From sequence record SRR2962707_2339: a stretch of DNA of 56,424 nt, one strand, 5' to 3'. This document shows, piece by piece, positions 14,625-44,149 of the stretch. Within the stretch, counting starts at the first letter, position 1; every line of letters starts with the position of its first letter. The notes below the pieces were generated by a model, which saw only the letters and a list, made by a program, of their open reading frames with translations, did not search any database and was not told where the DNA came from. Both the position numbers and the translations under genes were made by a program.

Positions 14625-14639
14625 TTACATATCTTTACA
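14625..14639 (+). promoter_or_regulatory. TTACA-N5-TTACA direct repeat upstream of the triple-PAS chemoreceptor
   Basis: TTACA TATCT TTACA. Confidence 0.6.
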
Positions 14640-14793
14640 TATTCTAATGGGCGGGAAACACGGCTGCTGAGTGTTTCTGCCATAGTGCATGCCAATTGCA
14701 AATGTGAATGCAAAGGTCCGCTACCAGTATTTCGTCTTTGGGCCATGATCGAAAAATCATTTGGGCGCTTGAGAGCGCAAACAGGAGCAGAAG

Positions 14794-16749
14794 ATGGAAC
14801 TACAAGCCACCACAGCGCATGTATCGTCGACTCCGAAGCCGGTAAAGCTCATGAAGCCCAAGGCCCCCAATGTCGCCAAGGCTAAATTCAACAGTGTTGA
14901 CAATGGTCCGTCTGAAAACATCGCCGAAATGTCGGCGATGATCGAGGCTTTGAATCGTTCACAGGCCGTTATCGAGTTCAATATGGATGGCACCATTCGA
15001 TCAGCGAATAAGCTTTTCCTCGGCGCTATGGGCTATACGCTTGATGAAATCGTCGGCCAGCATCACAGCATGTTTGTCGATCCGGCGTATGCAAAAAGCG
15101 CTGAATACAAAGATTTCTGGGCAAAGCTGAATGACGGCAAGTTCCAGGCTGCGGAATACAAGCGACTTGGCAAGGGCGGCAAGGAAGTTTTTATCCAAGC
15201 TTCCTATAACCCGATCTTCGATCAGAACGGCAAGCCATTCAAAGTCGTAAAATATGCGACGGACGTCACCGCACAGAAACTCAGGAATGTTGATTACGAA
15301 GGACAGATCGCGGCGATTTCCAAGTCACAGGCGGTCATCGAATTCAACATGGATGGAACCATTCTGAATGCCAACGATTTGTTCCTGAATGTCATGGGGT
15401 ATTCGCTTGATGAAATCAAAGGCAAGCATCACAGCATGTTTGCCGAACCCGATTTGGCAAGAAGCCCCGACTACAAACAGTTCTGGGCAAAACTGAATGC
15501 AGGTGACTTCCAGGCAGGTGAATACAAGCGCCTCGGCAAGGGCGGCAAGGAAGTCTACATCCAGGCTTCATACAATCCGATCCTTGATACTAATGGAAAG
15601 CCTTTCAAGGTCGTAAAATATGCGACGGACATCACCGCTCAGAAGTTGAAAAACGCCGATTACAAAGGCCAGATCGAAGCCATCAGCAAGTCACAAGCCG
15701 TTATCGAATTTGATATGAACGGCACCATCAGGACAGCAAACGACCTGTTCCTTGGCGTCATGGGTTACTCATTAAGTGAAATTCAGGGCAAGCATCACAG
15801 CATGTTCGCAGAACCTGAATACGCGCAGAGTGTCGAGTACAATCAGTTCTGGGAACAACTGCGTGCCGGCCAGTATCAAGCTGCTGAATACAAGCGCATC
15901 GGCAAGGGCGGGAAGGAAGTCTATATCCAGGCCTCTTACAATCCCATTCTCGATCTCAACGGCAAACCGGTCAAAGTCGTTAAGTACGCAACAGATATCA
16001 CCGCCCAGGTTGTCGCGCGCAATCACCGAGCGGAATCCATCAAGACCATAGACGGTGACCTGACCGAAATTTCCGGCGAGATCACCAATGTAAGCGAACT
16101 TGTGACGGACGCCGCGAGCGCCGCGACGCAGACTGCATCGAACGTCCAGGCAATGGCTGCGGCTGCGGAAGAAATGACGGCTTCCATTCAGGAAATCAGC
16201 CAGCAGGTAACGCGCTCGACAAACATCGCCCAGACCGCAGTCAGTCAGACCGAGGCCAGCAACGAGGCGATCTCGGCACTCTCAGAAGCGGCCCAGCGTA
16301 TCGGCGACGTCGTCGAACTGATCAGCGATATCGCCTCACAGACCAATCTTCTTGCGTTGAATGCCACGATCGAAGCCGCCCGCGCAGGCGAGGCCGGCAA
16401 GGGATTTGCCGTGGTTGCTTCGGAAGTGAAGAACCTGGCCAATCAGACCGCAAAGGCGACCGCTGATATCAGTACCCAGATATCTGGTATCCAGGACTCT
16501 ACAAATGCATCCGTCGAAGCGATGAAAAGCGTCACAAGCACAATCGGCGAGATCAACGAGATTTCAACCTCGATCTCTGCGGCCGTTGAAGAGCAGTCGA
16601 AAGTTACCGAGGAAATCTCGATGAACATGCAAACCGCCTCATCCGGTGTCGATCAAATCGCCAAAGGCACCTCGGAAATTTCAGCGGCCATGGAAAACGT
16701 CGAGAAATCCACGAAAAGGGTCAAAGACGCCACAAGCCAGATCGCATGA
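14794..16749 (+). CDS. Soluble methyl-accepting chemotaxis protein with three tandem PAS domains (BdlA-like PAS type)
   Basis: 3x SQAVIEF..DG...GYxLxEIxGxHHSMF...[11 protein letters not shown] tip [34 protein letters not shown]; no TM. Confidence 0.93.
14959..16010 (+). repeat. Intragenic tandem triplication, 366-bp period (PAS repeats)
   Basis: TCACAxGCxGTxATCGAxTT units start at 14959, 15325 and 15691. Confidence 0.85.
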
Positions 16750-16778
16750 GTACATATGTTTGCCTCCCCTGACTACTA

Positions 16779-16814
16779 CCCGCGCGCCAGACAAAGGCAC
16801 GCGGGATTTTGTTT
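16779..16814 (+). terminator. Possible intrinsic terminator after the MCP gene
   Basis: CCCGCGCGCC-AGACAAA-GGCACGCGGG stem (one mismatch) followed by ATTTTGTTT. Confidence 0.45.
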
Positions 16815-16854
16815 GTACCCTTATGTGCTGTAGTCTTGATATTGATGAGGCAAG

Positions 16855-19800
16855 GTGCCAACCGAAATGCCAATGAAAAATAAAAAACATTCCACGGCAA
16901 CGGACATAGCGAGCGATGCGCGCTCGCCTGATGATGAGACAAATTTGAATCTCCTCGGCGAAATGCGATGGGAATACGACCCGGAAAATGGAGTGTTCCT
17001 GTCCGTATCAATCCCCGAGGAAACATATCTGGGCTACACCAAGGAAGAATGGCTCAATGCTAATATGTGGCCCGATCTGGTTCATCCCAACGATCGGGGG
17101 CGCATCTCGTCCAAACGGGAAAAAGCCCACGAGGACAACAAGAGAATCGATTCCGAGTACCGGTTCAGGAATTCAAACGGCGAATTTAGCTGGGTCAGGG
17201 AACTCTCCTGCGCAAGCATAAATGAAGATGGCGCCCCGCGCGTTAAGGGCTATTTCTTCGATGTTACGGATTATCAGAGCATTCGCGCGCTGGTCACTGA
17301 ACGCGATAGCCCATACCGCAATCTTGTGGATGCGATGCCCGATCCATTTTTGATTCAGCAGAACGACGTTATCGTTTTTGCCAATCCTGCCGCAGAGTTC
17401 CTGTTGGGTGAAGGTCATGAAGAGTCTCTGATCGGCTTGAGCGTGGATAAGATATTCACGGACCGTCATCATGCCCAAGCCCGGATAGACACTGTCTCAT
17501 CCGGTGGCCAAAGCCTGTGCACCTCGAACGAAACCGTTCATTCCATAAAAGGAAAATCAATCGACGCGGAAATCGTCAGTTGCAAGACAATGTGGGGAAG
17601 TGGCCCCGCGGTGCAGTCGGTGATCCGGGATCTTACGTGGCTGTCAGAAATGCTGAATATGCTGCGCGAAGAGAAGAATCTGAGCAAGCTTGTCCTTGAT
17701 CATATCATCGAAGGTGTATGTGTGGTTGATCAAGCGGGGATCATCAAATCCGTCAATCCATCTGCAGCAAAAATCCTCGGCATTTCCGATACAAATGCCA
17801 AAGGGCAGTCAATACACAGCATTCTGCATTTACACACGGAATCAGGCGGACGGGATGACATCAGGAATTCAGACGCCGATTGCATCTACTGTAAACAGAA
17901 CCGTCTGGGCAAGAATTACCAATTGGAAAAGGCCTATTTGCCAGACAATGACGGAACAGAGCGATTTCTGCGCTGCGAGAGCACGCCGATTTATAACAAC
18001 AAGCAACTATTCGGCGCCGTGATCACAATTCGCGACCTGACCCAAATCAGACAGCGAGATATCGAAATCCATAATCTGACAAGAGCGATCGAGCAAAGCC
18101 CGGTTGCACTTGCCGTCACGGATATCAACGGGGCGTTGGAATATGTGAACCCCGAATTCTCTGATTTAATTGGCATTTCCTTCTCCGACTATCAGGGGAA
18201 GTCTTCTCCCCTTCTGACCTCCGAAACGCTCACCAATAAGACTTTCAAGTCTATGTGGCGGACATTGAAAGCCGGCAAAAAATGGGAAGGAGAAATTCCC
18301 AACTTCCTGTCCAACGGCCGTCGCATATGGATCCGCGGCATCGTATCGCCCCTGAAGGACGAAAACGGCAAGGTCACCAGGTATCTGGGGATGTACGTCG
18401 ACGTAACCAGCGAACAGTATGCCCAGGCGCTGCAAAAGGCGACCGAGAGCAAGCTGACGATGATCTTTAATTCCATCGGCAATGCCATCTTCATGATTAC
18501 TGATGACGGAAAAATCGAAGCGGTCAACCCAGCATGCATAAAGATGTTTGGTTACGAAAATGAAGTTCTCGACCGGATCAACATCACCGACATCCTGCCA
18601 GAATTCAGCCTAGACATTTACAAAGAGACATCACTTAACGGGGCATCGACTTCGTCGACAAAGGAAACATATGGGATCAATAAGGAAGGCATCCACATCC
18701 CGGTGTTGCTCACCGTTGGCAGAATGCCCCAGCCATCATGGCAGCTTGAGGACAGACGTAACAGGGATCGGAAATCCTATATCTGCACTATTCAGGACAT
18801 CACTGCCCAAAAGGAAGCTCAGAACGCCATCGAGAACGCGCAGAAGATGGATGCACTGGGGCAACTGACGGGAGGATTGGCACACGATTTCAACAACCTT
18901 CTCGGCATCGTCATCGGCAATCTGGATCTGGTAAAAGAGGACCTGCCGGATGACTCACCGCTCGTGAATTATGTCTCAACGGCGCTACGGGCATCGCTTC
19001 GTGGCGCGGATCTGTCTCGAAGCCTACTAGATTTCTCCCGTAGTGCCTCAATCAATACGGAAATGGTTGATGCCAATGAAGTTATCGAAGAACTCCAGGT
19101 TATGTTGCAGCCGGCGCTGACCAGGCGCATCAACATGACAAAGCAGATCGCTTCAGGTCTTTGGCATGCCTCATTGAACAAAAGCGAATTCATATCAGCT
19201 CTGATGAACCTGATCCTCAATGCCCGCGATGCAATGCCATCGGGGGGGGATATTTTGATATCGACCGAGAACCTCAGCATTTCCGAACCTAAGCCACTGG
19301 AACTCGGAATTTGCCTGCCTGGTGATTATATCTGCATCACCGTCAAAGACACCGGCACAGGTATGGATCAATCCACGCTCGATAAAATGTTTGAGCCATT
19401 TTATACGACAAAACCGAAAGGCAAGGGTACTGGACTTGGGCTGAGCACTGTCTTCGGGTTCGTTCACCGCGCAGGTGGCTTCATTGATGTGTCATCCGAA
19501 TTGAATAAAGGAACATCAATTTCGCTGATAATTCCCCGTGCAGAGGATGAGCAGCCAAAAGTCGAAGAATTAGATAACATAGATGTTTCATCGTCTATCA
19601 AGTCTGGAGAATTACTCGTCGTAGACGATGAAGTGGAACTTGCGGAATTCTGCAAATTCACCCTGGAGCGGGAAGGCTATTCGGTCCATATGGCCTATAA
19701 CGGGCGTCAGGCGCTAGATGTTCTGGAAGCTCATCCGAATATATCGGTAATGGTTACGGATGTCGTCATGCCCGGTGATCTGGATGGCATCGACTTGTGT

Positions 19801-19974
19801 GCAGAGGTCGGTCGAAGAAACCAAGCTGTTAAGGTGATTCTGACAACCGGATTCACCGAAAAAATCACTAACCGGGATTCATTGCCGGAAAACTGCATGG
19901 AACTTATGCGTAAACCTTTCCGCGCAGAGGAACTCGCAAGAGTAGTCGCCGCCGTCGACGCCCGGCATAAATAA
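16855..19974 (+). CDS. Soluble multi-PAS hybrid histidine kinase (about 5 PAS, HisKA, HATPase, REC)
   Basis: LVHPNDR PAS; NifL-like PAS (AIEQSPVALAVTD...SMWRTLKAGKKWEGEI); [40 protein letters not shown]; exact start uncertain (16855/16867/16873). Confidence 0.9.
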   Translation: MPTEMPMKNKKHSTATDIASDARSPDDETNLNLLGEMRWEYDPENGVFLSVSIPEETYLGYTKEEWLNANMWPDLVHPNDRGRISSKREKAHEDNKRIDSEYRFRNSNGEFSWVRELSCASINEDGAPRVKGYFFDVTDYQSIRALVTERDSPYRNLVDAMPDPFLIQQNDVIVFANPAAEFLLGEGHEESLIGLSVDKIFTDRHHAQARIDTVSSGGQSLCTSNETVHSIKGKSIDAEIVSCKTMWGSGPAVQSVIRDLTWLSEMLNMLREEKNLSKLVLDHIIEGVCVVDQAGIIKSVNPSAAKILGISDTNAKGQSIHSILHLHTESGGRDDIRNSDADCIYCKQNRLGKNYQLEKAYLPDNDGTERFLRCESTPIYNNKQLFGAVITIRDLTQIRQRDIEIHNLTRAIEQSPVALAVTDINGALEYVNPEFSDLIGISFSDYQGKSSPLLTSETLTNKTFKSMWRTLKAGKKWEGEIPNFLSNGRRIWIRGIVSPLKDENGKVTRYLGMYVDVTSEQYAQALQKATESKLTMIFNSIGNAIFMITDDGKIEAVNPACIKMFGYENEVLDRINITDILPEFSLDIYKETSLNGASTSSTKETYGINKEGIHIPVLLTVGRMPQPSWQLEDRRNRDRKSYICTIQDITAQKEAQNAIENAQKMDALGQLTGGLAHDFNNLLGIVIGNLDLVKEDLPDDSPLVNYVSTALRASLRGADLSRSLLDFSRSASINTEMVDANEVIEELQVMLQPALTRRINMTKQIASGLWHASLNKSEFISALMNLILNARDAMPSGGDILISTENLSISEPKPLELGICLPGDYICITVKDTGTGMDQSTLDKMFEPFYTTKPKGKGTGLGLSTVFGFVHRAGGFIDVSSELNKGTSISLIIPRAEDEQPKVEELDNIDVSSSIKSGELLVVDDEVELAEFCKFTLEREGYSVHMAYNGRQALDVLEAHPNISVMVTDVVMPGDLDGIDLCAEVGRRNQAVKVILTTGFTEKITNRDSLPENCMELMRKPFRAEELARVVAAVDARHK

Positions 19975-20069
19975 ATTTACTTACTTTTACATATTGGCAA
20001 AGACGAATCATCTTTCACATACCTGGCTCTACTATGTTTCGACGATGTTATTGATGACGGAAATGCCCC

Positions 20070-20456
20070 ATGACAAAACTTGCTCTAATTGTTGAAGACA
20101 ACGGCGGGACAGCAGCCTTCATTGCAGAGTGCATGGAACGGATGGGGTATCAGTGCATTTGCAAACGCACATTCGAGGCCGCTATGGACACCGTCCATGA
20201 CGCCAACCTTGAAGTAGCGATCATCGATATTTTCCTCCCCGGCATGGGCGGGATTGAGGGGATCCGGCAATTGAAGGCAATCAATGATAACTGCCGTGTC
20301 CTCGCTGTTTCTGGGGGCTTTCAACCAATGACCGGCCTGACAGCCCTGAAAGCCGCACAGCGTATCGGTGCCGACGCCGTTTTGCCGAAGCCTTTTCGCC
20401 TGCATCAAATCCGGGAAGTCATTAATGGATTCAACGCCTCCAGCACGTATGAATAA
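20070..20456 (+). CDS. Single-domain response regulator
   Basis: IVEDN, IIDIFLPGMGG, AVSGG, LPKPF. Confidence 0.9.
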   Translation: MTKLALIVEDNGGTAAFIAECMERMGYQCICKRTFEAAMDTVHDANLEVAIIDIFLPGMGGIEGIRQLKAINDNCRVLAVSGGFQPMTGLTALKAAQRIGADAVLPKPFRLHQIREVINGFNASSTYE

Positions 20457-20522
20457 CATCGGCCGTTCGGCATACGGATCACACCGAAGCTAAACGATCT
20501 CTCTCACTAAACAGAATACCCC

Positions 20523-20542
20523 ACCCCCAGCATGCTGGGGGT
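20523..20542. repeat. Perfect 20-bp palindrome
   Basis: ACCCCCAGCATGCTGGGGGT equals its own reverse complement. Confidence 0.8.
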
Positions 20543-20581
20543 TTCCCTATGCGCATGCCAATCGGGCCAGTTCTGAATGAA

Positions 20582-20596
20582 TTACAAATCTTTACA
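20582..20596 (+). promoter_or_regulatory. TTACA-N5-TTACA direct repeat upstream of the mcp-cheA operon
   Basis: TTACA AATCT TTACA. Confidence 0.6.
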
Positions 20597-20702
20597 TTAT
20601 CGAGATTTAGAAAAATCGACGGCTTACACGGGCATGTCATTTTCTAGGCACGGAAATGCAGAGAATTTCCACCAGTAACCGAGCCGGAACGAGGCAAAAA
20701 AC

Positions 20703-21860
20703 ATGTTGGATCAGACCACCACGGATGACGGCGTCACCTCTGAAAAGAGTGCCAAACAAGACGACCAGACACTCATGATCATGGAGCAGATGCTGGATCA
20801 GATGCCGATCAATGTAATGTTCGTTGAGCCAGTGAATTTCACCATTACATATGTTAACCGGACAAGCATCCAAACACTGACCCCGATTGCCGATCTGCTA
20901 CCGGCCCCGCCGGAACAGCTCAAAGGCCGTTGCATGGACATTTTCCATGCCAAACCTGAGCACCAGCGGAAGATCGTCGGCGATCCGACGAAGCTTCCCT
21001 GGAAATCCCGTATAACCCTGGGTCCGCAAAGCCTTGATCTGCTCGTCAGCGCCATTCATGGCCGTAATGGTGAGTATCTTGGTGCCATGCTGACATGGGA
21101 TGTGGTTACCGAGAAAGTCGAGCTCGCCAAGAACTTCGAAACCAACATTAAATCGGTGGTGGAGAGCGTCCTTGCAGCATCCAAAGATATGCAACAGAGC
21201 TCGGAAAGCATGGCCAGATCGTCCACCGAGACCAGCGATAAAGCCAGCGCCGTCGCCGCCGCTTCTGGACAATTGACGGCAGCCATTAACGAAATTTCTG
21301 AACAGGTAACACGTTCCGCCACGATTTCGAGCAATGCGGTCACCGAGGCCAGCCGCTCTAATGAAATGGTGCAGGGACTGGCGGAAGCAGCTGAGCGCAT
21401 CGGAGAAGTCGTCGTGCTGATCAATGACATCGCGAGCCAGACCAATCTGCTGGCACTGAACGCCACTATCGAGGCTGCACGTGCCGGCGATGCGGGCAAG
21501 GGCTTCGCCGTTGTTGCTTCGGAGGTAAAGAACCTCGCCAACCAGACAGCCAAGGCGACGGACGAAATTGCCAGCCAGGTTGGTGAAATTCAGAATGCGA
21601 CCAAGGACTCGGTTGCCGCGATCCAGAAGATTTCGACGACTATCGATGAAGTCAGCCAGATCTCCACGGCGATTTCGTCCGCGGTTGAAGAGCAAAGTGC
21701 GGCAACACGTGAAGTCTCACAGAACATTTCTGGTGTGACGTCTGCATCGAGCGAGTCGGGTGAAATGGCGGCGCAACTTCTGACCGCTGCGACCGGCCTC
21801 TCCGAACAAGCCGATGCATTGCAGAACGAAGTCAACGCTTTCATGGAAAAGATGGACTAA
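20703..21860 (+). CDS. Soluble chemoreceptor with Aer2-type heme PAS domain
   Basis: MDIFHAKPEHQR (cf. Aer2 IDVFHKNPAHQR) and conserved Trp in LTWDVVT; MCP tip motif; no TM. Confidence 0.88.
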   Translation: MLDQTTTDDGVTSEKSAKQDDQTLMIMEQMLDQMPINVMFVEPVNFTITYVNRTSIQTLTPIADLLPAPPEQLKGRCMDIFHAKPEHQRKIVGDPTKLPWKSRITLGPQSLDLLVSAIHGRNGEYLGAMLTWDVVTEKVELAKNFETNIKSVVESVLAASKDMQQSSESMARSSTETSDKASAVAAASGQLTAAINEISEQVTRSATISSNAVTEASRSNEMVQGLAEAAERIGEVVVLINDIASQTNLLALNATIEAARAGDAGKGFAVVASEVKNLANQTAKATDEIASQVGEIQNATKDSVAAIQKISTTIDEVSQISTAISSAVEEQSAATREVSQNISGVTSASSESGEMAAQLLTAATGLSEQADALQNEVNAFMEKMD

Positions 21861-21900
21861 CGGATAGCACGCAAACGTAATTTTACTCAGGGCGAAACCA

Positions 21901-24684
21901 ATGGATGATCTTCTTCAAGAATTTATCGCTGAAGCGACCGAAAATCTGGCCGTCATTGACCAGGAACTGGTCCGTCTCGAACAGTATCCAAATGATACGG
22001 AGATTCTCGGGAACATTTTTCGCCTCGTACACACGGTCAAAGGCACATGCGGCTTTCTTGGTCTGTCACGGCTCGAGAAGGTTGCCCATTCAGGTGAAAA
22101 TGTTCTCGGCAAATTCCGAGATGGTGAGCTTGAAGTCAAACCGGCGGCCGTTACCGTCATTCTGGAGTGCATTGATCGTATCCGCGATATTCTCGCCGCG
22201 ATCGAAGAATCCGGCGCCGAGCCGGACGGAGATGACTCCAAACTGATCAACAGCCTGGATGCACTGCTGGAAGTTGACGAGGCGGCACCTGCCGACATCG
22301 TGTCTGAACAACCTTCCTCGGATAATGCCGGGGATAACAACAGTGGGCAGATGTCCGTGAACGAATTCGGTGCCCCTGTCGCAGCCGAATTCATGGCAGA
22401 GTTCGAAGCCGCGATGGCGAATGAGCCCGCTGCCTCTAAAAAGACCCCTGATGAAGCCAATGCGGCAGACGTATCTGCTAAAGAGGCACCCGTTGAGGAA
22501 GCCCCTTCTTCTCCGGAAGCGACCTCTACCCTGACCAACTCCTCTCCGGTTGACGATGCCCCCAGCCCCCCATTGGGCAGCCCTTCGACCGGAGAGGACG
22601 AGGCCGGATTAAGCGCATCGACCCAGAAACGCGAGCCTGTGGCGTCTGCGTCAAGCCTGCGCATCAACGTCGATGTGTTGGAAAACCTGATGACCCTGGT
22701 TTCCGAACTGGTTCTGGCCCGCAACCAGCTATTACAGATGGTACGCGGCTATGATGATCACGAGTTTGCCGTGCCGCTTCAACTTTTGAGCCACATCACG
22801 ACCGATTTGCAGGAAGGTGTCATGCAAACGCGCATGCAGCCGATCGGCAATGCCTGGTCAAAACTGCCCCGGATCGTGCGTGACCTGTCGGTGGCTTCAG
22901 GCAAAAAGATCGATCTGGTTATGGACGGTGCGGAAACCGAACTGGACCGCCAAATTCTCGATCTGATCAAGGACCCGCTCACGCACATGGTCCGCAATTC
23001 CGCCGACCATGGCCTTGAAGGACCGGAAGAGCGCCTTGCCGCAGGAAAATCGGAAAGCGGCAAGATCAGACTCAATGCATTTCACGAAGGCGGGCATATC
23101 ATTGTCGAGATTTCCGACGATGGCCGCGGCCTGAATACGGATCGTATCCGTCAGAAAATCATCGAAAAGGAAATCCTGCCGGAAGCGAATGTGGCAGCCC
23201 TGTCCGATCAGCAGGTGCAGCAATACATCTTCCATCCGGGGTTTTCGACCGCCGAGAAGATTACGAATGTCTCGGGCCGGGGCGTCGGCATGGACGTGGT
23301 TCGCACCAACATCGAACAGATCAATGGGTCCATCGATCTGCGCTCTGTCAAAGGCGAAGGCACCACGGTCACCATCAAGATCCCTTTGACGCTGGCAATC
23401 ATTTCCGCGCTGCTGGTCAAATGCAAAACCCAGCGCTTTGCCATCCCGCAGTTCAGTGTCATCGAACTGGTCCGGACTGCTTCCAACTCCGAACACCAGA
23501 TCGAATACATCCACAAAATGCCGGTCCTGCATCTTCGTAACCAGCTTCTGCCGTTGGTGCGGCTAGACCGGCTGCTTGGCCTTGATGACGACACCGAGGA
23601 ACAACTGTCCGAAGAGAGCTTCGTTGTCGTCGCGAAGACAGGCAACGCGACCTTTGGGATCGTCGTCGACAAGGTATTCGACACCGAAGAAATCGTCGTC
23701 AAACCGGTTTCTCCGATACTCAGGAACATCCGTCAGTTTTCCGGCAATACGATCCTGGGTGATGGCAGCGTGATCATGATCCTGGATCCGAATGGCATCG
23801 CGGCTGAAATCGGTGATATCGAAACCAGCCTGCAATCCAAGGCTGATAACGAAAAGAACGCCGGGATTGATGATAAAAAAGTGCCGCTGCTGTTGTTCAA
23901 AGGTGAAGGCGATGAACCGATGGCTGTGCCGTTGGTCCTGGTGGCGAGGCTTGAAGATATCGCCAGCAAGGACATCGAGCACTCGGGCGGTTACAATCTG
24001 GTTCAGTATCGCGGCAACCTGATGCCTCTGATCAGCCTCGGTGAAGGTGATGATCTACCGGATCGCGACTCGCATCCTGTTCTGGTATTCTCCGATCGCG
24101 GTCGCCAGTTTGGGCTCGTCGTCAATGAGGTCCTCGACATCGTTGAAGACGTGATCAATGTCGAAATGCCAAGCAAGCGCAAGGGGACTTTGGGGAGTGC
24201 TGTGATCAACGGCAAGGCCACTGATGTCCTGGACTCTGGCCACTTCATTCACAAGGCACTGGGCGACAGGTTCGTTTCAGCGACACCGGCTGACAACGCC
24301 AGCAACGGCCGACCGAAAGCTTTGCTTGTTGATGACAGTAATTTCTTTCGCAGCCTGATTACGCCGCTGCTCTCGGTTGAAGGATGGGATGTCACCTCGG
24401 TTGCATCAGCCAAGGACGCATTGAACCTGCGCGACGACAACAAGCACTTCCATCTGATTATCAGCGACATCGACATGCCAGATATGGATGGTTTTGATTT
24501 CGGCACGAATGTTCGTAACGACAATCGTTGGGGGTCGACACCACTGATTGCACTCTCGGCGAAGACGACGTCGGCAGATATCAACAGAGCACACGATATC
24601 GGGTTTACCGATTACGTTGCGAAGAACGACCGTGAAGGGTTGATCCGGTCAATCCGTTCAATACTGAGTGAAAAAGCGGCCTGA
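21901..24684 (+). CDS. cheA: Chemotaxis kinase CheA with two CheW domains and C-terminal REC
   Basis: Hpt FRLVHTVKGTCGFL; TRMQPIG; HMVRNSADHGLE; SGRGVGMDVV; IPLTLAI; ISDIDMPDMDG. Confidence 0.97.
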   Translation: MDDLLQEFIAEATENLAVIDQELVRLEQYPNDTEILGNIFRLVHTVKGTCGFLGLSRLEKVAHSGENVLGKFRDGELEVKPAAVTVILECIDRIRDILAAIEESGAEPDGDDSKLINSLDALLEVDEAAPADIVSEQPSSDNAGDNNSGQMSVNEFGAPVAAEFMAEFEAAMANEPAASKKTPDEANAADVSAKEAPVEEAPSSPEATSTLTNSSPVDDAPSPPLGSPSTGEDEAGLSASTQKREPVASASSLRINVDVLENLMTLVSELVLARNQLLQMVRGYDDHEFAVPLQLLSHITTDLQEGVMQTRMQPIGNAWSKLPRIVRDLSVASGKKIDLVMDGAETELDRQILDLIKDPLTHMVRNSADHGLEGPEERLAAGKSESGKIRLNAFHEGGHIIVEISDDGRGLNTDRIRQKIIEKEILPEANVAALSDQQVQQYIFHPGFSTAEKITNVSGRGVGMDVVRTNIEQINGSIDLRSVKGEGTTVTIKIPLTLAIISALLVKCKTQRFAIPQFSVIELVRTASNSEHQIEYIHKMPVLHLRNQLLPLVRLDRLLGLDDDTEEQLSEESFVVVAKTGNATFGIVVDKVFDTEEIVVKPVSPILRNIRQFSGNTILGDGSVIMILDPNGIAAEIGDIETSLQSKADNEKNAGIDDKKVPLLLFKGEGDEPMAVPLVLVARLEDIASKDIEHSGGYNLVQYRGNLMPLISLGEGDDLPDRDSHPVLVFSDRGRQFGLVVNEVLDIVEDVINVEMPSKRKGTLGSAVINGKATDVLDSGHFIHKALGDRFVSATPADNASNGRPKALLVDDSNFFRSLITPLLSVEGWDVTSVASAKDALNLRDDNKHFHLIISDIDMPDMDGFDFGTNVRNDNRWGSTPLIALSAKTTSADINRAHDIGFTDYVAKNDREGLIRSIRSILSEKAA

Positions 24685-24709
24685 GTCCGGCCTCGGAAGG
24701 AACACGAAG

Positions 24710-25210: not shown

Positions 25211-25235
25211 AAACTTTATTCACGGAGTAAAACCA

Positions 25236-25622: not shown

Positions 25623-25656
25623 GGATCAACCCTTTGTAACCGCGAGGTCCAATGCC

Positions 25657-33710: not shown

Positions 33711-33713
33711 AAA

Positions 33714-36803: not shown

Positions 36804-36837
36804 TTTTTTGAATTTCTATTTTTCAATTACCCAGCCC

Positions 36838-38331
36838 CTAGACCGGTTTGCGTTTCGGCAAAACAACCGTAAAGCAGGTGCCGCCACTGGGTGATGAAGC
36901 CAATGAAATGCTTCCCTTATGAAAACTGATCCCCTTTTGCACAATCGCCAGGCCTATACCGGTGCCTGGATACTTCGAACGATGGTGTAGCCGATGAAAT
37001 ATCTGGAAAACCTTATCCCGGCAGTCTTCAGGAATACCGATTCCATTATCCGCAATCGAGATTTCAACTTCGTGCGTGCGTACTTTGCCGAGCAGTTCCA
37101 CGACTGGTCGGGCATTGGGGCGCGCGAATTTGATCGCATTGCCGATCAGATTCTGGAAAACACCCAGCAGGGACGCCTGATGCCCATCTATCTCGCACCA
37201 TTCTCCGTCAACATTGATCACGGCGCCCATTTCCTCGATCAGAGATCTGTGATTGTTGATCGCGTGGTCGATCAATTGACGAACCGGCATCTTTTTGAAG
37301 GGAAGATCGTCGCGCCCTATGCGACTGTACTCCAGCAAGTCATCGATCATTTCCCCCATGTGACTGACACCGTCTCCGATGTGAGCCAGATATTCCTTGG
37401 CCGTTTCATCCAGGATTGAGGTGTAATCCTCTTCGAGGGCATTCGAAAATCCGGCGATGGCGCGCAACGGCGCCTTGAGGTCGTGGGCTACGGAATATGA
37501 GAATGCAGCGAGTTCCCGGACATTATCCTCGATTTCCTGTTGTGCGCGCTTACGTTCTGTAATGTCGCGAATGATGCCAACAAAAACCGGCCGACCCTTT
37601 TCGAGAGCTTCACCGACTGATAATTCCATTGGAAAGACAGAGCCGTCCTTCCGCCGCCCCATGACTTCACGTCCGATACCAATAATTTTCTTCACACCGG
37701 TATCGCGATAGTTTTTTAGATATCCATCATGTTCATCCGCATACGGCGCCGGCATAAGTACATCAACATTGCAGCCAATGACTTCGCTCGAGGTATAGCC
37801 GAAAAGCTGTTCACATGCCGGATTGAAAATTTGAATTTTGGCATCGGCATTGATGATAATCACACCATCTACGGCCGTATCAATAACTGCCCGGATACGC
37901 GCTTCGCTCTCACGCAATGAATCTTCAGCCGCCTTGCGCTCGGTGATATCGCGAATGATGCCGACATAGAAGCGCGCACCATGTTCTCCTGCTTCACCGA
38001 CGGAAAGTTCCATGGGGAATGTGGATCCGTCCTTGCGCATGCCGGAAACCTCGCGGCCAATGCCGATTATCTTCTTGGCGCCGGTAGTTGTATAATTCGA
38101 GAGATATCCGTCATGCTCTTCGCGATAGGGCGGCGGCATGAGGGTTTTGATGTTCTTGCCGATGATGTCTTTGGCAGAGTACTTGAAAAGTTTTTCACAG
38201 GCAGGATTGAAAAGCTGAATCGTGCCCACTTCATTGATAATGATGATCCCATCTACCGCAGTTTTGATGATGACGTCCAGCTGGCCCGATGCGCCTTGAT
38301 AGCTGGGATCTGTCTTGCTGTTCATCTCCAC
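36838..38331 (-). CDS. Soluble histidine kinase with two tandem FixL-type heme PAS domains
   Basis: 2x LMP.PY..EHDGYL.NY..TG.KKIIGIGREV.G.RKDGS.FPMELSVGE; FSYSVAHDLKAPLRAI H-box; YPGTGIGL. Confidence 0.92.
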   Translation of the reverse strand: MEMNSKTDPSYQGASGQLDVIIKTAVDGIIIINEVGTIQLFNPACEKLFKYSAKDIIGKNIKTLMPPPYREEHDGYLSNYTTTGAKKIIGIGREVSGMRKDGSTFPMELSVGEAGEHGARFYVGIIRDITERKAAEDSLRESEARIRAVIDTAVDGVIIINADAKIQIFNPACEQLFGYTSSEVIGCNVDVLMPAPYADEHDGYLKNYRDTGVKKIIGIGREVMGRRKDGSVFPMELSVGEALEKGRPVFVGIIRDITERKRAQQEIEDNVRELAAFSYSVAHDLKAPLRAIAGFSNALEEDYTSILDETAKEYLAHIGDGVSHMGEMIDDLLEYSRIGRDDLPFKKMPVRQLIDHAINNHRSLIEEMGAVINVDGEWCEIDGHQASLLGVFQNLIGNAIKFARPNARPVVELLGKVRTHEVEISIADNGIGIPEDCRDKVFQIFHRLHHRSKYPGTGIGLAIVQKGISFHKGSISLASSPSGGTCFTVVLPKRKPV

Positions 38332-38768
38332 TTGCAGTCTCGCCTATCTTATATTTATGGACGCTTCTCTTCCCACAATTGCTACATTGTTGTTGTCGCA
38401 CTAACTTTTTTAATTATTTCAATATCTTGCACGTCATCTTCAAGTATGACTGCAATTTACACTTCTGCCTTATCGATAAGTATATTGAATCATTTTCATA
38501 GTTAAATACGTACATCCACCAATACGAAAGATGTCTTCGATTAACGACAATCAGGATGGGGGGAGGGGGGCTAGTGTACAGAAATAGAATGAAATTCTAT
38601 GTAGCTATATATTTAGATTGGAACCGGCATAATGATCACCAGGTTCAGCGATTATCTCAGAGGCCACAGTATCACCTGCGTTGACCCGGAGAAATTTTCT
38701 AACTGGAATTTCTGCAAGAAAATGTAATTGGCGAATGGAGGACCATGGCCTGCAATTTTCATGAGCAA

Positions 38769-39182
38769 CTATGCATCCTGTTCCTTAGGAGCATTTAACA
38801 AACCGCTGCGATCCGGGTCCGGATAACCCATGATTTGAACCAGCTTTTGATAAATCGCCGTTAACCTCGAAACATCCTGTTCACTAAGCATTGGGTTGCC
38901 GGCACGGACTGCTTCAACGAACGCTTCAAGACCCTGTTGCATATGTATGGGCAAAATACCGACCATCTTGTGTTTATCGCCGATTATTTTCAGGTACTTG
39001 TCGAGTTCGACATTATCGTCGTGCCTAAAGATAACGGTCTTCAAAGCAATCTCGAACATTCGCTTTTGCGCGTTAACGTCCCTGAATCGATCAACGATTT
39101 TCGGATATTGCGCATACAGACACTTATAGAATGTTTCCGTTGCAACACTTACGTCAATCGCCCTGATTTCGGACTCGGCCAT
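38769..39182 (-). CDS. Single-domain globin
   Basis: B10 Tyr (TFYKCL), CD1 Phe (YPKIVDRF), E7 Gln (NAQKRMF), F8 His (IGDKHKMVGI). Confidence 0.75.
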   Translation of the reverse strand: MAESEIRAIDVSVATETFYKCLYAQYPKIVDRFRDVNAQKRMFEIALKTVIFRHDDNVELDKYLKIIGDKHKMVGILPIHMQQGLEAFVEAVRAGNPMLSEQDVSRLTAIYQKLVQIMGYPDPDRSGLLNAPKEQDA

Positions 39183-39185
39183 TGC

Positions 39186-40532
39186 TCACTCACCCTTTGC
39201 GGTGTTTTCCTGCAGGCGCTCCGCCAGGTTTTTTCTGAAATTCGACAACATGCTGTCTTCAGAGCACTGGGTGTGCTGCCGCAGCAAGTTTATCTCTTCG
39301 GCATTTTTATGAAGCGTGGACAGGACATCCAGGTCGATCTTCCCGCGCTGGCCGAAGTTGTCCAACATGCCCAGGCATGTCGAAAGTTCCAGTCCTTGGC
39401 GATATGGGCGGTTCTCCGTCAATGCGGTGAAGATATCGGCAATCGCCAGTATGCGTGCCTCTATGCCTATTTGGTCGGCCGCAAGACCATATGGATATCC
39501 TGACCCGTCAATAAATTCGTGGTGTTGAGATGCCCATTTTTCAATATCTTCCATACCGTCCACATTATGGAGAATCTTTTTCGTATAGAAGGAATGGCAA
39601 TTCATCACGAGGCGCTCTTCCTCGCTTAGTTCCCCCGGTTTTTCCAGAATTTCTCCCGGGACAGCGAGTTTACCAATATCGTGCAGATAACCGGCTATCT
39701 TTACCTGCAGACACAGTTCTTCATCCAAACCATGTGCAAGAGCGAGTGCTTGGGCGACGATCGCAACCCCGGATGAGTGGCTTGCTGTAAAGCGGCTGCG
39801 TGAATCGATTATAAACGCATAGACTTTCGATAAGTTCTCAAGTTCCTCGAAGCTCAATCGCGTATCGCGAATAGATGATAGATTCCTGATCGAACTGTCC
39901 AGTAGCGCGGTATCCATTTCCAGCCAGAAAGAAGGCCGTGCGGATAAATCGCAGAATGCTTCGACAAGATGCGGAGGGAACAACCTGCCTGCACCGTTTT
40001 TGATACGATCTCTAATCTGAATTGCCTGGCCGGTCAGCGGAATATTCTGATCAATCTGGACCGCGACACGATCGGCTAGCTGAATGACATGACTGATCGG
40101 ATTGACGAAACGGCCGTTGTGGCATTCCCCCCTTCCCCAGTCCCAAGCGACGTGATGATCTCCGACGACCTGCGCAAGCCCAGCCAACGGCTCGACAGAT
40201 TCCAGAATAGACTCGCCGATGAAGGCATGATCAGTGGACAGTTGCTTATCATACTCATGCAGAGCCAACCGGTCAGCGAGATAAGAGGCGCCAATGTCGT
40301 GGACCATTGCAGAAGCGAATAGCTTTTCATATGCCTCTTGATCGTCCGATATCTCATGATGCAAGCAGGCGGCAATATAGCACGTGAGTTTGTGATGATT
40401 GCCGAAGCGGATGTTGACCATGTCCAATGCCGTCGAAAGAGACATAAACATATCGAGGAAGGACACACCGTCTTTAGGCGGCCGATTAAGGGGATCCAAA
40501 TTGTCCGTTCGGGTGCCTAAAAACGCATTCAT
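39186..40532 (-). CDS. Double-HD HD-GYP phosphodiesterase (probably c-di-GMP)
   Basis: N-terminal degenerate HD (MVHDIGA); C-terminal HS..VA, YLHDIGK, HHEFIDGSGYPYG, ADIFTALTENRPYR. Confidence 0.9.
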   Translation of the reverse strand: MNAFLGTRTDNLDPLNRPPKDGVSFLDMFMSLSTALDMVNIRFGNHHKLTCYIAACLHHEISDDQEAYEKLFASAMVHDIGASYLADRLALHEYDKQLSTDHAFIGESILESVEPLAGLAQVVGDHHVAWDWGRGECHNGRFVNPISHVIQLADRVAVQIDQNIPLTGQAIQIRDRIKNGAGRLFPPHLVEAFCDLSARPSFWLEMDTALLDSSIRNLSSIRDTRLSFEELENLSKVYAFIIDSRSRFTASHSSGVAIVAQALALAHGLDEELCLQVKIAGYLHDIGKLAVPGEILEKPGELSEEERLVMNCHSFYTKKILHNVDGMEDIEKWASQHHEFIDGSGYPYGLAADQIGIEARILAIADIFTALTENRPYRQGLELSTCLGMLDNFGQRGKIDLDVLSTLHKNAEEINLLRQHTQCSEDSMLSNFRKNLAERLQENTAKGE

Positions 40533-40649
40533 TTCAAGTAAAGTTCCTAACTTCGCTTATTCACGGCATTGAGGGTTTGGCCTTTTGACCGGGTGCAACA
40601 TGTTTCTACTACAGGCAGGTAAAAGGCAGATTTCCTGTATTTGCCGAAA

Positions 40650-40664
40650 TGTGAAGTTATGTAA
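40650..40664 (-). promoter_or_regulatory. One-mismatch TTACA-N5-TCACA repeat upstream of HD-GYP/globin
   Basis: Minus strand reads TTACA TAACT TCACA. Confidence 0.45.
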
Positions 40665-40669: not shown

Positions 40670-43336
40670 CTAGGAACCGGCTCCGATCGATTTCAGAAAA
40701 TCATTCACCGATGCCTCGATGGCTTCGTTGTTCTCCGGCTCAGGCTGCGCTTCGGGTACTGGCGTTTGGAGTTCGACGACTTTCGGCTGGTGGATAATTT
40801 CCCCCATCGTCCGATTGATCATGAGCGCCAGTTCCGTGCGGTTGATCGGCTTCGTGACCACGCAGTTCATGCCGGCCTCAATATAGCCTTTCTTGTTTTC
40901 GGCCATGGCATCCGCTGTCAGTGCAATGATGGGGATGGATTTCTTCTCATTCTCCATGGCACGGATCTTACGGGTTGCATCAGGCCCCGACATGACAGGC
41001 ATTCTGATGTCCATCAAGATAAGGTCGTACGTGCCTTTGTTGTGCATTTCGATACCCAGCATCCCATTTTCAGCGATATCGCAGGTATGGCCAAAACCGG
41101 TAATGATTGATGAAATGATCTGTTGATTGAGCTTGTTGTCGTCGACGATCAGGATGTGCAATGGCCTGACGGCATGAAATGTCGTCGCGTTCATCAATGT
41201 CGATTTTTTGCGTAAATTTCTCACGTCACCACTCAAATACGGCAACTCGAACCAGAAACAGCTTCCTTTTCCATAGATACTGTTGACGCCGATCTGCCCA
41301 CCCAGCATTTCGATCAGTTTTTTCGATATCGACAATCCGAGCCCGGTTCCCTCGAAGCGGCGGGTGATTGATGCATCTGCTTGGGTAAATTCGGCAAACA
41401 GCTTGCCCACATCCTCTTGCTTGATACCGATCCCGGTATCTCGAACTTCGAATCTCAGTACAGGCTTATCTGTTCCCTTAGAAACACTGGATACGCTCAC
41501 CGTCACCTCTCCGGTTTCGGTAAATTTGACAGCGTTACCAACAAGGTTGACCAGAATCTGTCGGATCCGTGTCGGATCTGAACGGATACCGTGTGGCACA
41601 TCAGGTTGAATATTGGCTTTTATTTCGAGCCCATGAGGGCCATTCGCCTGTTTTCTGGAGAACAGTCCGACAACGTCATGGACCAGTCCGTGCAGGTCCA
41701 AATCCATCAGCTCGATCTTGAATTTTCCTGAATCGAGTTTCGACATATCGAGAATATCATTGATGATGCCGAGAAGTGACATTGATGATTCTTTGATGAC
41801 TTCGACCTGCATGCGGGCATTCTTGGAAAGATTGCTCTCGAGGAGAATTTCGGCAAAGCCGATGATACTTGTCATCGGCGTTCTTATTTCATGGCTCATT
41901 GAAGCCAGGAATTCCGATTTTGACCGCTCTGCCGCTTCAGCTTTGTTTCGAAGTTCGGCTTCCGTCTCGGCAAATTTCTGCAGTTCTGCTGCTTGCTCCT
42001 CAACACGGCGCTGCGCCTCCTTGATCTCTTCCAACTGCTGAACCAGTAGGGAAGATCGTTCCGCCAGAACATTCTCCTTTTCTTTCTCGGCGGTAATGTC
42101 CGTGCGGACGCTGATATACTGGATTGGTTTGTTTGCTTCGCCGATCAACGGGACGATTGTGGAAGCAACCCAGTAGCGGTTGCCATCCTTTGCCTGGTTA
42201 CAAATTTCACCGTGCCAGACTTGGCCGGAGGCAATCGTACGCCACATTTCCTTAAAGAACGATTTTGTGTGGCAGCCAGAATTAATTAACCTGTGGTTGG
42301 CGCCGATGATCTCCTCATAGCTATAGCCGGATAGGTCACAAAACTTCTTGTTCGCGTAGAGAATGTTGCCTTTGACGTCCGTGACGCTAACGATTGCGTG
42401 CTCGTCGATCGCGAGCTTCTGAAAGTTGAGCTCGTTAACAGCTTTATTCCGTTCTGACAGCAACCGCCCAACAAAGAAAAGGGGGATTACGATCAACGCC
42501 ATCACGAGCATGTATCTGAGAACAATTGCGCTTTCATTGGTGGCGCGTGTCGGCCAGCCTTGATGTGGCACGGCTAATATCTGCCAATTACCATAAGGCA
42601 GAGATACTGTGGCCACCTCCGGTGACAAGTCGAGAATATCGCTGTTTCCCAAAAAGAACTGTCCGTCCGCACCCTCTGCGTCCCGGCCACGGATCGCGAG
42701 GTGCATTTCCTGTTCTAGTTCAGGCAAACCACTGGCAGCGAACAGTTTATCGACGTCTATCACAGCCGATAACAGTCCCCAGAACTTATGGCGGCCCAAA
42801 TCTTCCTGAACTGAATAAACAGGCACCCTTGCGATGATTCCAACCCCGCCTTGAACCAGCTTAACGGGGCCGGCAATCACCATTCTGTTTTCTTCAATGG
42901 CCCTCAGTGCCAACTCTCTCTGGGCATCATTCTTATTAAAATCCAGACCAATGGCGGATCGATTTCCCTCAAGCGGGTACATGAGCCGAATGACAAGACC
43001 GGGTGCACCTCCGATGTTACGGATCTGGTATTTATCCTGGAACAATTCACGCGCTAGCGACTCGAACCGCGATTGATTTATTTCAGGTTCCGTTGCGACA
43101 GCGGCAACCATGCCCATGACCAAATTCGCATTGATGGCAATATTCTGCTCAAGCGCGGCGCGGACAGTATTCAGCCGCTCGGCAACGGTTTTACGTGCAT
43201 CAAACAAAGCCAGGCGTCGTGACTCGATGATTGAGCTCGACAAAAGAAAGACGATACATGTGCTTGCAAAAATCGCCAGCCCGTAGGCAACCCATGAATT
43301 CAAAAGGGCAGGTTTGTGTTCGGCAATACGCTTCAT
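40670..43336 (-). CDS. Hybrid sensor kinase (TM-CHASE-TM, PAS, HisKA, HATPase, REC)
   Basis: CHASE YPLEGNRSAIGLD...AGPVKLVQGG...FWG; PAS EMWRTIASGQVWHGEICN; SMSHEIRTPM; RRFEGTGLGL; LMDIRMP; alternative GTG start at 43378. Confidence 0.92.
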   Translation of the reverse strand: MKRIAEHKPALLNSWVAYGLAIFASTCIVFLLSSSIIESRRLALFDARKTVAERLNTVRAALEQNIAINANLVMGMVAAVATEPEINQSRFESLARELFQDKYQIRNIGGAPGLVIRLMYPLEGNRSAIGLDFNKNDAQRELALRAIEENRMVIAGPVKLVQGGVGIIARVPVYSVQEDLGRHKFWGLLSAVIDVDKLFAASGLPELEQEMHLAIRGRDAEGADGQFFLGNSDILDLSPEVATVSLPYGNWQILAVPHQGWPTRATNESAIVLRYMLVMALIVIPLFFVGRLLSERNKAVNELNFQKLAIDEHAIVSVTDVKGNILYANKKFCDLSGYSYEEIIGANHRLINSGCHTKSFFKEMWRTIASGQVWHGEICNQAKDGNRYWVASTIVPLIGEANKPIQYISVRTDITAEKEKENVLAERSSLLVQQLEEIKEAQRRVEEQAAELQKFAETEAELRNKAEAAERSKSEFLASMSHEIRTPMTSIIGFAEILLESNLSKNARMQVEVIKESSMSLLGIINDILDMSKLDSGKFKIELMDLDLHGLVHDVVGLFSRKQANGPHGLEIKANIQPDVPHGIRSDPTRIRQILVNLVGNAVKFTETGEVTVSVSSVSKGTDKPVLRFEVRDTGIGIKQEDVGKLFAEFTQADASITRRFEGTGLGLSISKKLIEMLGGQIGVNSIYGKGSCFWFELPYLSGDVRNLRKKSTLMNATTFHAVRPLHILIVDDNKLNQQIISSIITGFGHTCDIAENGMLGIEMHNKGTYDLILMDIRMPVMSGPDATRKIRAMENEKKSIPIIALTADAMAENKKGYIEAGMNCVVTKPINRTELALMINRTMGEIIHQPKVVELQTPVPEAQPEPENNEAIEASVNDFLKSIGAGS

Positions 43337-43350
43337 TTGCCTTACCCTAG

Positions 43351-43896
43351 TTATATATTTCCCAGAAATTCTGAACACTCTTCTTCATTGACGGCGATGG
43401 TTTGTTTGCGGAGTTCGAACTCGTTCACCACCAAACGAGCGAGCGTCTCGAGATGTGCAATTTGCGTTTCGAACAGATCGCGCTGGACATAATCAATGGC
43501 GCAGAGGGCACCTATCCGGAAACCGTCGGGCGTGATCAGCGGCGCACCGGCGTAAAAGCGGATGCCGGGCCAACCCATAACCAGAGGATTAAGCGAAAAT
43601 CGCTGATCATCCCTTGCGTCCGGTACGACGAGCACATTGCTGTCGAGGATCGTGTGCGCACAGAAAGACTCGCAACGCGACGTGTCCCATTTCGGCATGC
43701 CTATATTGGATATGAACCACAGTCTGTCACGGTCGACGATGGAAATAGCGGCGACAGGGACTTTCAGCAAATCAATAACGAGGTTGGCGATACGGTCGTA
43801 CGTCACTTCCCGGGTAATATCCAGAATCTGGTACTCGTACAGCTTTCTGACCCGCAGATCTTCGCTGGTTGGCAGCTTTGCAGGAATGAAACCCAT
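43351..43896 (-). CDS. Stand-alone GAF domain protein
   Basis: EDLRVRKLYEYQILD, SFCAHTIL, VVPDARDDQRF..NPLV...PGIRFYAGAPL. Confidence 0.88.
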   Translation of the reverse strand: MGFIPAKLPTSEDLRVRKLYEYQILDITREVTYDRIANLVIDLLKVPVAAISIVDRDRLWFISNIGMPKWDTSRCESFCAHTILDSNVLVVPDARDDQRFSLNPLVMGWPGIRFYAGAPLITPDGFRIGALCAIDYVQRDLFETQIAHLETLARLVVNEFELRKQTIAVNEEECSEFLGNI

Positions 43897-44134
43897 GTGA
43901 CATCTCCGTTCATAACGTCCGATCCGTCTTTGATTACGTCATGTTTGGCATCCATTTGTATCCGGAGTGTTTTTCCAATATTCAAAAATGTAAGCGCACA
44001 GGCATCCCATTTGCGGCGCCTCAACGCATGCTGCCTGCACCAATGCCATTGAATATCAAGCATCGCCGAATATGAGCCGATTTCTCTGCTTTCATGCATC
44101 AAAATCACCGACCGTTTAGGTGGCCGACGTCCAC

Positions 44135-44149
44135 TTACATTTCTTTACA
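44135..44149 (+). promoter_or_regulatory. TTACA-N5-TTACA direct repeat (16-mer identical to the 28457-28472 site)
   Basis: CTTACATTTCTTTACA. Confidence 0.55.

Follow-up and report, generated by a model that had tools for sequence, protein, structure and literature searches.

A 56,424-nucleotide (nt) stretch of DNA from sequence record SRR2962707_2339 (the window), whose host was placed in the Rhodospirillales (the genomes compared belong to the same order as a named Magnetospirillum locus, with RpoH up to 97% identical), carries at ~10.3–46 kb a block of chemotaxis and sensor genes, in which operons are repeatedly preceded by the direct repeat TTACA-N5-TTACA (the box). On comparative grounds, we assign a probability of roughly 0.72 to the reading that these boxes bind the block's own OmpR-family response regulator, encoded at 27608–28342, and that this protein activates the block's sigma-70-type promoters, which have no −35 element. 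An earlier reading of the window's letters (the original prediction) had described the boxes as operators of a self-contained island regulon coordinated by that OmpR-type regulator; comparative genomics backs the regulator as the best candidate for that role, whereas the 'self-contained' part is overstated, as detailed below.

All five perfect boxes previously listed (14625, 20582, 28458, 33045 and 44135) were confirmed, together with their spacers (TATCT, AATCT, TTTCT, TTAGC and TTTCT) and the identity of the 16-mers at 28457 and 44134, and all five lie between genes on the plus strand. Shuffled sequences contained a mean of 0.01 perfect boxes, with 0 of 100 shuffles reaching 5, and when up to one mismatch was allowed the window held 9 matches (shuffle mean 1.33), four of them one-mismatch copies. 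Three of these four (19977(+), 38713(−) and 40650(−)) had already been recorded; the fourth, 45541(−), had been overlooked and falls within an open reading frame. Among spacers of 0–12 nt, perfect pairs numbered 5 at a spacer of 5, 1 at a spacer of 2 and 0 at the remaining 11, making the 5-nt spacer the only enriched spacing. Nor does AT-richness explain the boxes, because 1,000 dinucleotide shuffles of the 3,547 intergenic bases of 10300–46100 (44.5% GC) yielded a mean of 0.007 and a maximum of 1, versus 5 observed. Most boxes end 78–154 nt ahead of the start codon of a co-oriented operon, much as first described, with the exception of the 44135(+) box, which faces no recognisable gene, and the 38713(−) box, which lies 381 nt ahead of the next gene. 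Contigs from sequencing runs over 13700–33600 revealed, among the differences listed, a strain difference at 14631, inside a box spacer.

Alignment with counterparts in relatives indicates that each box is the front half of a conserved ~62-bp promoter design, always oriented with the downstream operon. The layout is fixed, with TTACA at 0 and +10, an A-tract at +27 to +34, a third TTACA at +42 to +46, 9 nt and then a −10-like hexamer at +56 to +61 (weighted frequency 0.96 for A at +57 and 0.80 for T at +61). A matrix of this design, trained on 24 sites from five relatives with the window excluded, placed 20582, 44135, 28458, 14625, 19977, 40650 and 38713 as the top seven of 112,720 window positions (scores 16.8–52.9; runners-up, 33055 at 12.8 and then ≤7.3), and when the part downstream of the box was scored alone, all seven sites ranked within the highest 0.4% among 6,954 intergenic positions. 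Two registers were shifted by the matrix: 33055, the second repeat, replaced 33045, and 43989 replaced 43979, where the weaker copy originally proposed turned out to be misplaced (the element starts 10 nt farther upstream, where its first half-site is absent, and the TTACA at 43989–43993 serves as its second). No consensus −35/−10 pair was present at any box, and a promoter scan found nothing above shuffle level; these promoters therefore look activator-dependent, and the term 'operator' appears to understate boxes whose geometry points to an activated promoter.

The boxes also recur at orthologous promoters in five related genomes, which bears out the motif conservation in homologous clusters that had been suggested as a check. 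A perfect box precedes the counterparts of the cheA operon (the 20582 promoter) and of the GAF/CHASE kinase operon in 5 of 5 relatives, the 15-mer at 28458 is identical in all five, and the 14625 promoter has a perfect box in four of the five at first sight and in five once realigned. The 19977 promoter retains its one-mismatch box in four relatives, with a weaker box in the fifth (G235). The PAS kinase operon downstream of the element at 38666–38727 has no ortholog in the relatives' clusters.

The regulator is a protein with receiver (PF00072, E = 2 × 10−26) and winged-helix Trans_reg_C (PF00486, E = 3 × 10−24) domains and an intact phosphorylation pocket (D13/D14, D56, S83, Y102 and K105), residues that are conserved in 11 close homologs (≥90% at two of the acidic positions); its recognition helix reads RSVDVVIGK. 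Its gene lies between a convergent DUF2336 gene and a divergent hypothetical gene, with the 28458 box 115 nt upstream of its start codon; contrary to the original description, this is not the densest cluster of sites, as only one box and one extra half-site occur there. Orthologs (71–73% identity) were found in 5 of 96 family genomes, four of which are also among 401 order genomes, and all five ortholog genomes (G221, G235, G134, G123 and G443) carry the cluster in synteny, the same genes being preceded by boxes. In a tree of 50 rows, the orthologs fall in a 10-row clade (support 100/100) inside a 29-row clade (100/99), and every member of the larger clade whose DNA was examined (9 of 9) shows a perfect box 51–119 nt ahead of the regulator start codon. 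Three of these nine (G052, G159 and G383), found by protein search, are only 47–52% identical, and in them the box faces a divergent gene, which in G052 and G159 encodes a PAS hybrid kinase. The corresponding background, from 160 loci collected with generic peptide patterns (35–45% relatives; 150 with enough upstream DNA), was a perfect box within 320 nt in 4 of 150 OmpR-family loci, and four more distant regulators inspected (G350, G257, the C5 regulator of G112, and G228) had no box directly upstream. In a further genome found by motif alone (G023), two boxes flank the gene for a 47% identical regulator whose helix likewise reads R-S-V-D-V-x-I-G-K. Across the 20 genomes nearest by RpoH, the box-plus-promoter pattern occurred 3–5 times in each of the 5 ortholog carriers and not at all in 14 of the 15 non-carriers (one-sided Fisher P ≈ 4 × 10−4 by our own arithmetic, for a pattern derived from the positive genomes). 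The cleanest control is the nearest relative, G279 (RpoH 97% identical), whose che operon encodes a CheA 80% identical to that of the window but which has no regulator ortholog and, in its che cluster, neither a DUF2336 gene nor an intergenic box. With boxes at 9 of 9 clade members versus 4 of 150 background loci, and with regulator and boxes both missing from G279, the 27608–28342 protein is therefore the likely activator; that is, the boxes are likely sites of an OmpR/PhoB-family protein, for which it is the best candidate from these comparisons.

Among known systems, the closest published box is that of RstA of Escherichia coli and Klebsiella, consensus TACATNTNGTTACA (PMC4117788), the TACA-N6-TACA core of which (10-bp period, coding strand; PMC4117788) is contained in all five perfect boxes, whereas the G of the full consensus is unmatched here, with T in place of G before the second half-site. 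The promoter layout matches that of E. coli asr, and the design is therefore a known activator-dependent one: the RstA box of asr starts 57 nt before the −10 hexamer (56 here), a second box at −39 to −22 is reported to be followed by a 9-bp spacer (PMC9026648), and RstA is described as activating asr in vitro (PMC13425233). The downstream asr site has been attributed to PhoB, and its counterpart here is the third TTACA. We also observed that the asr promoter (L230:458–520) has TGCCA at +42, where the block has this third TTACA, which invites the speculation that the published PhoB box is also a weak RstA half-site. Of the three base-reading residues of RstA, two have identical counterparts in the regulator (Arg199 as R204 and Val203 as V208). 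The regulator is nevertheless not an RstA ortholog (30% identity in the receiver and 43% in the DNA-binding domain; NCBIfam score 153.8 bits against a cut-off of 330), it has no RstB-type membrane sensor gene beside it, unlike RstA with its adjacent cognate sensor gene, and its targets differ in being chemotaxis and sensor genes.

In place of the analogy with CpxR drawn originally, RstA offers the closest published box; the CpxR site, GTAAA-N5-GTAAA, differs from the reverse strand of the box by one base per half-site. Within the 10-bp-period branch (OmpR, CpxR, ArcA and TorR), OmpR (193.7 bits), ArcA (184.4) and TorR (183) gave the best NCBIfam scores for the regulator, all far below cut-offs; the regulator belongs to a separate tree clade and has no cognate sensor adjoining. 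In role it would resemble Rem of Sinorhizobium and Agrobacterium, described as an alphaproteobacterial orphan OmpR-like activator of chemotaxis genes, with direct repeats upstream of start sites (10.1101/2021.06.24.449765); Rem, however, is reported to have Glu at the phosphorylation site and to control flagellar genes (10.1101/2021.06.24.449765), whereas the regulator here keeps Asp56. Among flagellar loci, the search covered 20 kb around flhA-ctrA from each set of sequences of four relatives and found no box at ≤1 mismatch. CtrA, reported to control alphaproteobacterial motility and chemotaxis genes (PMC4433202), shares the kind of target, and an F5-class che operon lies beside ctrA; the block's CheA also has F5 architecture. 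In relatives, the block and the flagellar region are separate, and the CtrA model rejects the regulator (120.5 bits, cut-off 350). The window has 0 perfect sites of the form TTAA-N7-TTAA, the CtrA consensus. By analogy, then, the regulator, which lacks defining features of RstA, Rem and CtrA, may work as RstA does at asr in a role like that of Rem. No description of this regulator with this gene set was found in the literature, and the exact string TTACA-N5-TTACA returned 0 papers (subscription journals were outside the search); the box type and activation mode are already known, and the regulon, as a combination of regulator and chemotaxis gene set, appears to be new.

In the mechanism that we propose, a head-to-tail dimer of the regulator would occupy the box. 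If the hexamer is taken as −12 to −7, the box would lie at −68 to −54 and the third half-site at −26 to −22, with transcription starting ~68 nt past the box start; the phosphorylated dimer would take the strong upstream box first, and the weak second site beside RNA polymerase would be filled after. A hybrid PAS kinase of the block may phosphorylate Asp56, as suggested by co-conservation only, with the multi-PAS kinase at 16855–19974 favoured because in more distant clade members, too, a kinase of this type adjoins the regulator and is preceded by a box; a box before the partner kinase would create feedback. Approximately eight promoters would be activated, serving both che operons, receptors and signalling genes, and the output would be joint expression of F5-type che operons, cytoplasmic PAS receptors, receivers and an HD-GYP enzyme.

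Several observations weigh against this reading. Motif frequency inside versus outside the block was assessed in the relatives' genomes, where only 20 of the 41 perfect boxes of the five ortholog genomes are inside the block and 21 are outside, many of the latter ending in GTTACA and lacking the downstream design. The bare 15-mer occurs in 66 of 96 family genomes, several of which have no ortholog and carry 6–8 copies. Where the regulator is missing, relatives still carry the GTTACA-ending boxes that precede a type I secretion locus, and a host protein therefore reads a very similar site. TTTACA-type boxes precede metal-resistance-like clusters and an ABC transporter in other Rhodospirillales (29 of 401 genomes), with no such regulator in the DNA examined around those loci. 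One genome, G112, keeps two perfect full elements without an ortholog (best match 44%); its cluster is broken in pieces, with FlhA and CheA not found, and we read these elements as relics. Within the window, the 33045 site is not conserved in the three relatives that have the PAS and chemoreceptor pair, and 44135 has no evident target. Finally, Arg207 of RstA is replaced by Lys212 in the regulator, and the genomes from which the box-plus-promoter pattern was drawn may be one clade.

The boxes outside the block also set the reach of the regulon. At an unlinked kinase-receiver locus, three genomes (G123, G235 and G112) have the full element and two (G134 and G221) the box alone, with no close ortholog of the locus found in G279, G273, G199 or G174; the predicted regulon is therefore block-centred but open, reaching at least one unlinked receiver gene in relatives. 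Other boxes were encountered as observations in their own right. Two conserved GTTACA-type boxes 27 kb apart in most close relatives (L190, L191, L192 and L193) flank a gene for a giant protein (>2,500 amino acids (aa)) and a type I secretion ABC gene, and many Rhodospirillales have a single locus with a GTTACA-type box in the 0/+10/+42 layout (53 of 401 genomes when one mismatch was allowed). The metal-resistance-like region (L327, L328, L333, L331, L334 and L336, from G211, G076, G330, G151 and G348; gene labels read from N-terminal sequences) has up to five perfect boxes, a different downstream pattern (GCCATTTAC, CCAAT) and no OmpR-family gene in the DNA examined, and may represent a second, unexplained regulon with the same box. 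Eleven genomes (L315–L325) have TTACATTCCTTTACA in common, in the interval that separates a hybrid kinase from a divergently oriented ABC transporter operon. A rule based on T versus G at box position +9, intended to separate block from host boxes, worked within the genus and failed across the order.

The main competing explanation, to which we give a minor but real share of the probability, is that a host-wide OmpR-family regulator that reads TTACA-N4-GTTACA boxes at other loci of these genomes drives the block, alone or with the local protein. GTTACA-type boxes are conserved whether or not a relative has the block, some directly precede other OmpR-family genes (G235, G199 and G052) and some share the 0/+10/+42 layout; RstA and OmpR of E. 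coli are reported to use one motif at csgD (PMC13425233), and the two sites of G112 are kept without the local regulator. However, G279 carries host-type boxes but none in its che cluster, the block boxes favour C-T before the second half-site (G there in 0 of the 5 perfect window boxes), and the occurrence of the box follows the local regulator clade (9 of 9 cases). That the local regulator binds but represses, its third half-site at +42 blocking RNA polymerase, would suit the earlier term 'operator' and the fall of that half-site between the −35 and −10 positions; we consider it improbable, given the missing −35/−10 consensus pair and a layout that copies asr, which RstA is described as activating in vitro (PMC13425233).

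In its strict form, the original idea was of a closed regulon confined to a mobile island, and an island remains plausible in view of the tRNA target, the GC shift (the block is near 50% GC versus ~58% on its left, beside a tRNA hot spot) and absence from this site in relatives, in four of which tRNA-Ser is followed by different DNA each time. The clustering of the 20 boxes of the relatives within a ~14-kb stretch per genome also suits such closure. Yet five relatives carry the cluster core at a locus other than tRNA-Ser, 2–4 GC points below its flanks, no integrase was found among 48 scanned proteins and no att repeat in the window (the tRNA 3′ end occurs once at ≤3 mismatches), although either could lie outside the window; with elements and boxes at the unlinked receiver locus as well, we regard closure as slightly less probable even than repression. 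Chance, AT-rich background or a recombination or repeat element with no regulatory role might be suspected, as TTACA occurs 67 times in the window and isolated perfect boxes lie inside genes in G279, but the shuffle controls, the single spacer length, the strand agreement with genes, the fixed distance to a −10-like hexamer and conservation despite diverged flanks effectively refute this. Activation by the block's own regulator thus remains our preferred reading, and the features on which it bears are collected in Table 1.

Table 1. Promoter elements, genes and other features of the chemotaxis block (window coordinates; MCP, methyl-accepting chemotaxis protein).
Feature	Coordinates	Strand	Description
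tRNA-Ser(GCT)	10176–10265	+	Left edge of low-GC block
Promoter element	14625–14686	+	Perfect box 14625–14639, A-tract, degenerate third half-site, −10-like CATAGT 14681–14686; before triple-PAS chemoreceptor
Triple-PAS cytoplasmic chemoreceptor	14794–16749	+	Predicted target
Multi-PAS hybrid histidine kinase	16855–19974	+	In all 5 related clusters (49–52%)
Promoter element	19977–20038	+	One-mismatch box, −10-like TATGTT 20033–20038; before single-domain receiver
Single-domain receiver	20070–20456	+	Predicted target
Best promoter element	20582–20643	+	Perfect box, AGAAAAAT, third TTACA 20624, TG-extended −10-like CATTTT; before MCP-cheA-cheW-cheY-cheZ-DUF2336
MCP, cheA, cheW, cheY, cheZ, DUF2336/SpbR-like	20703–27592	+	Predicted target operon
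Orphan OmpR/PhoB-family response regulator, 244 aa	27608–28342	−	Likely binder of the boxes
Promoter element	28458–28519	+	Perfect box, third TTACA 28500, −10-like TAAAGT; before hyp-hyp-cheY-cheB-cheR
Two proteins conserved in Rhodospirillales and without a known family, followed by cheY, cheB, cheR	28559–33034	+	Predicted target operon
Promoter element	33045–33116	+	Perfect box 33045–33059, degenerate third repeat, −10-like TATTGT in register with 33055; before split PAS + chemoreceptor pair
PAS protein + chemoreceptor split in two genes	33174–34925	+	Likely target
PAS kinase, receiver, receiver-PAS	35308–38331	−	Possible target
Promoter element	38666–38727	−	One-mismatch box, AGAAAATT, TG-extended TACTGT; 381 nt before PAS kinase operon
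HD-GYP phosphodiesterase + 137-aa globin-like protein	38769–40532	−	Likely targets; globin match weak, E = 9 × 10−4
Promoter element	40603–40664	−	One-mismatch box, CAGGAAAT, TTACC, −10-like TAGAAA; before HD-GYP and globin-like gene
GAF protein + CHASE-PAS hybrid kinase	40670–43896	−	Likely targets
Partial element	43942–44003	−	Second half-site only (43989–43993), A-tract, ATACA, −10-like CAAACA in register; before GAF and CHASE hybrid kinase
Complete-looking promoter element	44135–44196	+	Perfect box, GGAAAAAT, CGACA, GATACT; no recognisable downstream gene
Scar of another chemotaxis cluster	44593–46046	−	Both ends of G279-type cluster, 88–91% nucleotide identity, joined across ~21.5 kb

In addition to CheA, the block encodes four sensor kinases, as well as receivers, three intact chemoreceptors, two proteins of unknown family and an HD-GYP protein, with the che operon split in two by the divergent OmpR-family gene. 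Its earlier label as a c-di-GMP block has the one HD-GYP protein as its sole basis, no GGDEF or EAL domain being found among the 48 proteins scanned. CheA (Hpt, dimer, ATPase, two CheW domains and a C-terminal receiver) has F5-type architecture, the duplicated CheW domain and C-terminal receiver described for the F5-class chemosensory system (PMC10542144) both being present. The complete-looking element at 44135 is probably a relic of a divergent promoter pair; the transcript predicted from it has no stable fold (z = +1.5), and its six frames had no match in the relatives' loci compared. An Rfam scan of the window returned only the tRNA.

Several genes of the block drew attention in their own right. 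The 361-aa and 352-aa proteins encoded at 28559–30705 have 215 and 520 homologs, the named ones mostly from Rhodospirillales, and the pair also occurs within the G279 che cluster, with second copies elsewhere in some genomes. Neither matched a Pfam or NCBIfam family or gave a useful Atlas match, and a model of the 361-aa protein (pLDDT 80) had no Foldseek match at E = 0.001, only generic helical-bundle matches (Z up to 9.9), which left the idea that it is a phosphotransferase unsupported; the two are possibly unrecognised chemotaxis components. The DUF2336 protein (26432–27592), last in its che operon, scored 366.7 bits against the SpbR model cut-off of 400 and is absent, together with the regulator, from G279. 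Between the triple-PAS receptor and the hybrid kinase, a stable hairpin with a U-rich tail occurs at 16778–16805 (z = −3.4), and relatives have at its counterpart a different conserved hairpin followed by CGGTTCATATT; the hybrid kinase may need its own promoter. A 149-aa PAS fragment at 14098–14547, with weak LOV-kinase matches, is probably a remnant.

Chemotaxis loci in the lineage appear to have been rearranged more than once. In three genomes (G010, G417 and G242), cheA-cheY-cheB-cheR is kept beside ctrA in the flagellar region (cheB being internally shortened in G242), and cheR was seen in G154, whereas all 8 of the genomes inspected with RpoH at least 89% identical keep only chpT-cheY there (chpT alone in G273). 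The chpT-che operon convergent on ctrA (L270:2691–4491, L271, L272, L273 and L292–L295) thus records a lineage-wide loss of cheA, cheB and cheR. Six genomes with a block-type CheA (76–80% identity) had one CheA match each; with the ctrA-linked genes gone and a single CheA match per genome, the block therefore likely supplies the only chemotaxis kinase of the lineage, and it is probably the only chemotaxis system there, an extrapolation for the window's host. Near the right end of the block, 44604–45290 is a chimeric gene, in which the beginning of a CHASE3 chemoreceptor runs on in frame into the final ~39 codons of a histidine kinase, and its junction corresponds to a ~21.5-kb deletion relative to G279. 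The CheA proteins of the window and G279 are only 78–80% identical. The simplest reading of these sequences would be that a G279-type cluster was deleted in the host, which has the present block by transfer. The G279 cluster itself is a regulator-less che cluster, in which the cheA intergenic region (L257:1330–1530) contains GAAACAT-N3-GAAACAT with a 10-bp period; its AAACA-N5-AAACA repeat has no −10 in register and is possibly a site of another OmpR-family protein, a 37% identical one being encoded 7 kb away. We tentatively suggest, as a possibility that we hold to be somewhat short of even, that the block is a portable chemotaxis cassette with its own switch (regulator, candidate PAS kinase and promoters), which became the sole chemotaxis system after loss of the ctrA-linked cheA, cheB and cheR and is swapped as a unit between close relatives, the window's lineage having lost the G279-type cluster and taken this one.

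Together, these comparisons offer a concrete set of regulator, sites and targets, with predicted start sites, for chemotaxis in a poorly studied alphaproteobacterial lineage. They also suggest that the asr-type layout (a dimer box near −61, an extra half-site at −24 and no −35) is widely reused by OmpR-family proteins of the Rhodospirillales, reuse that helps regulon prediction in that order. The evolutionary side may be the more interesting, in that a core behaviour has seemingly moved from a ctrA-linked locus to a separately regulated, exchangeable block; if the cassette interpretation is true, chemotaxis expression would follow internal sensory input (PAS, globin and GAF) rather than the CtrA cell-cycle circuit.

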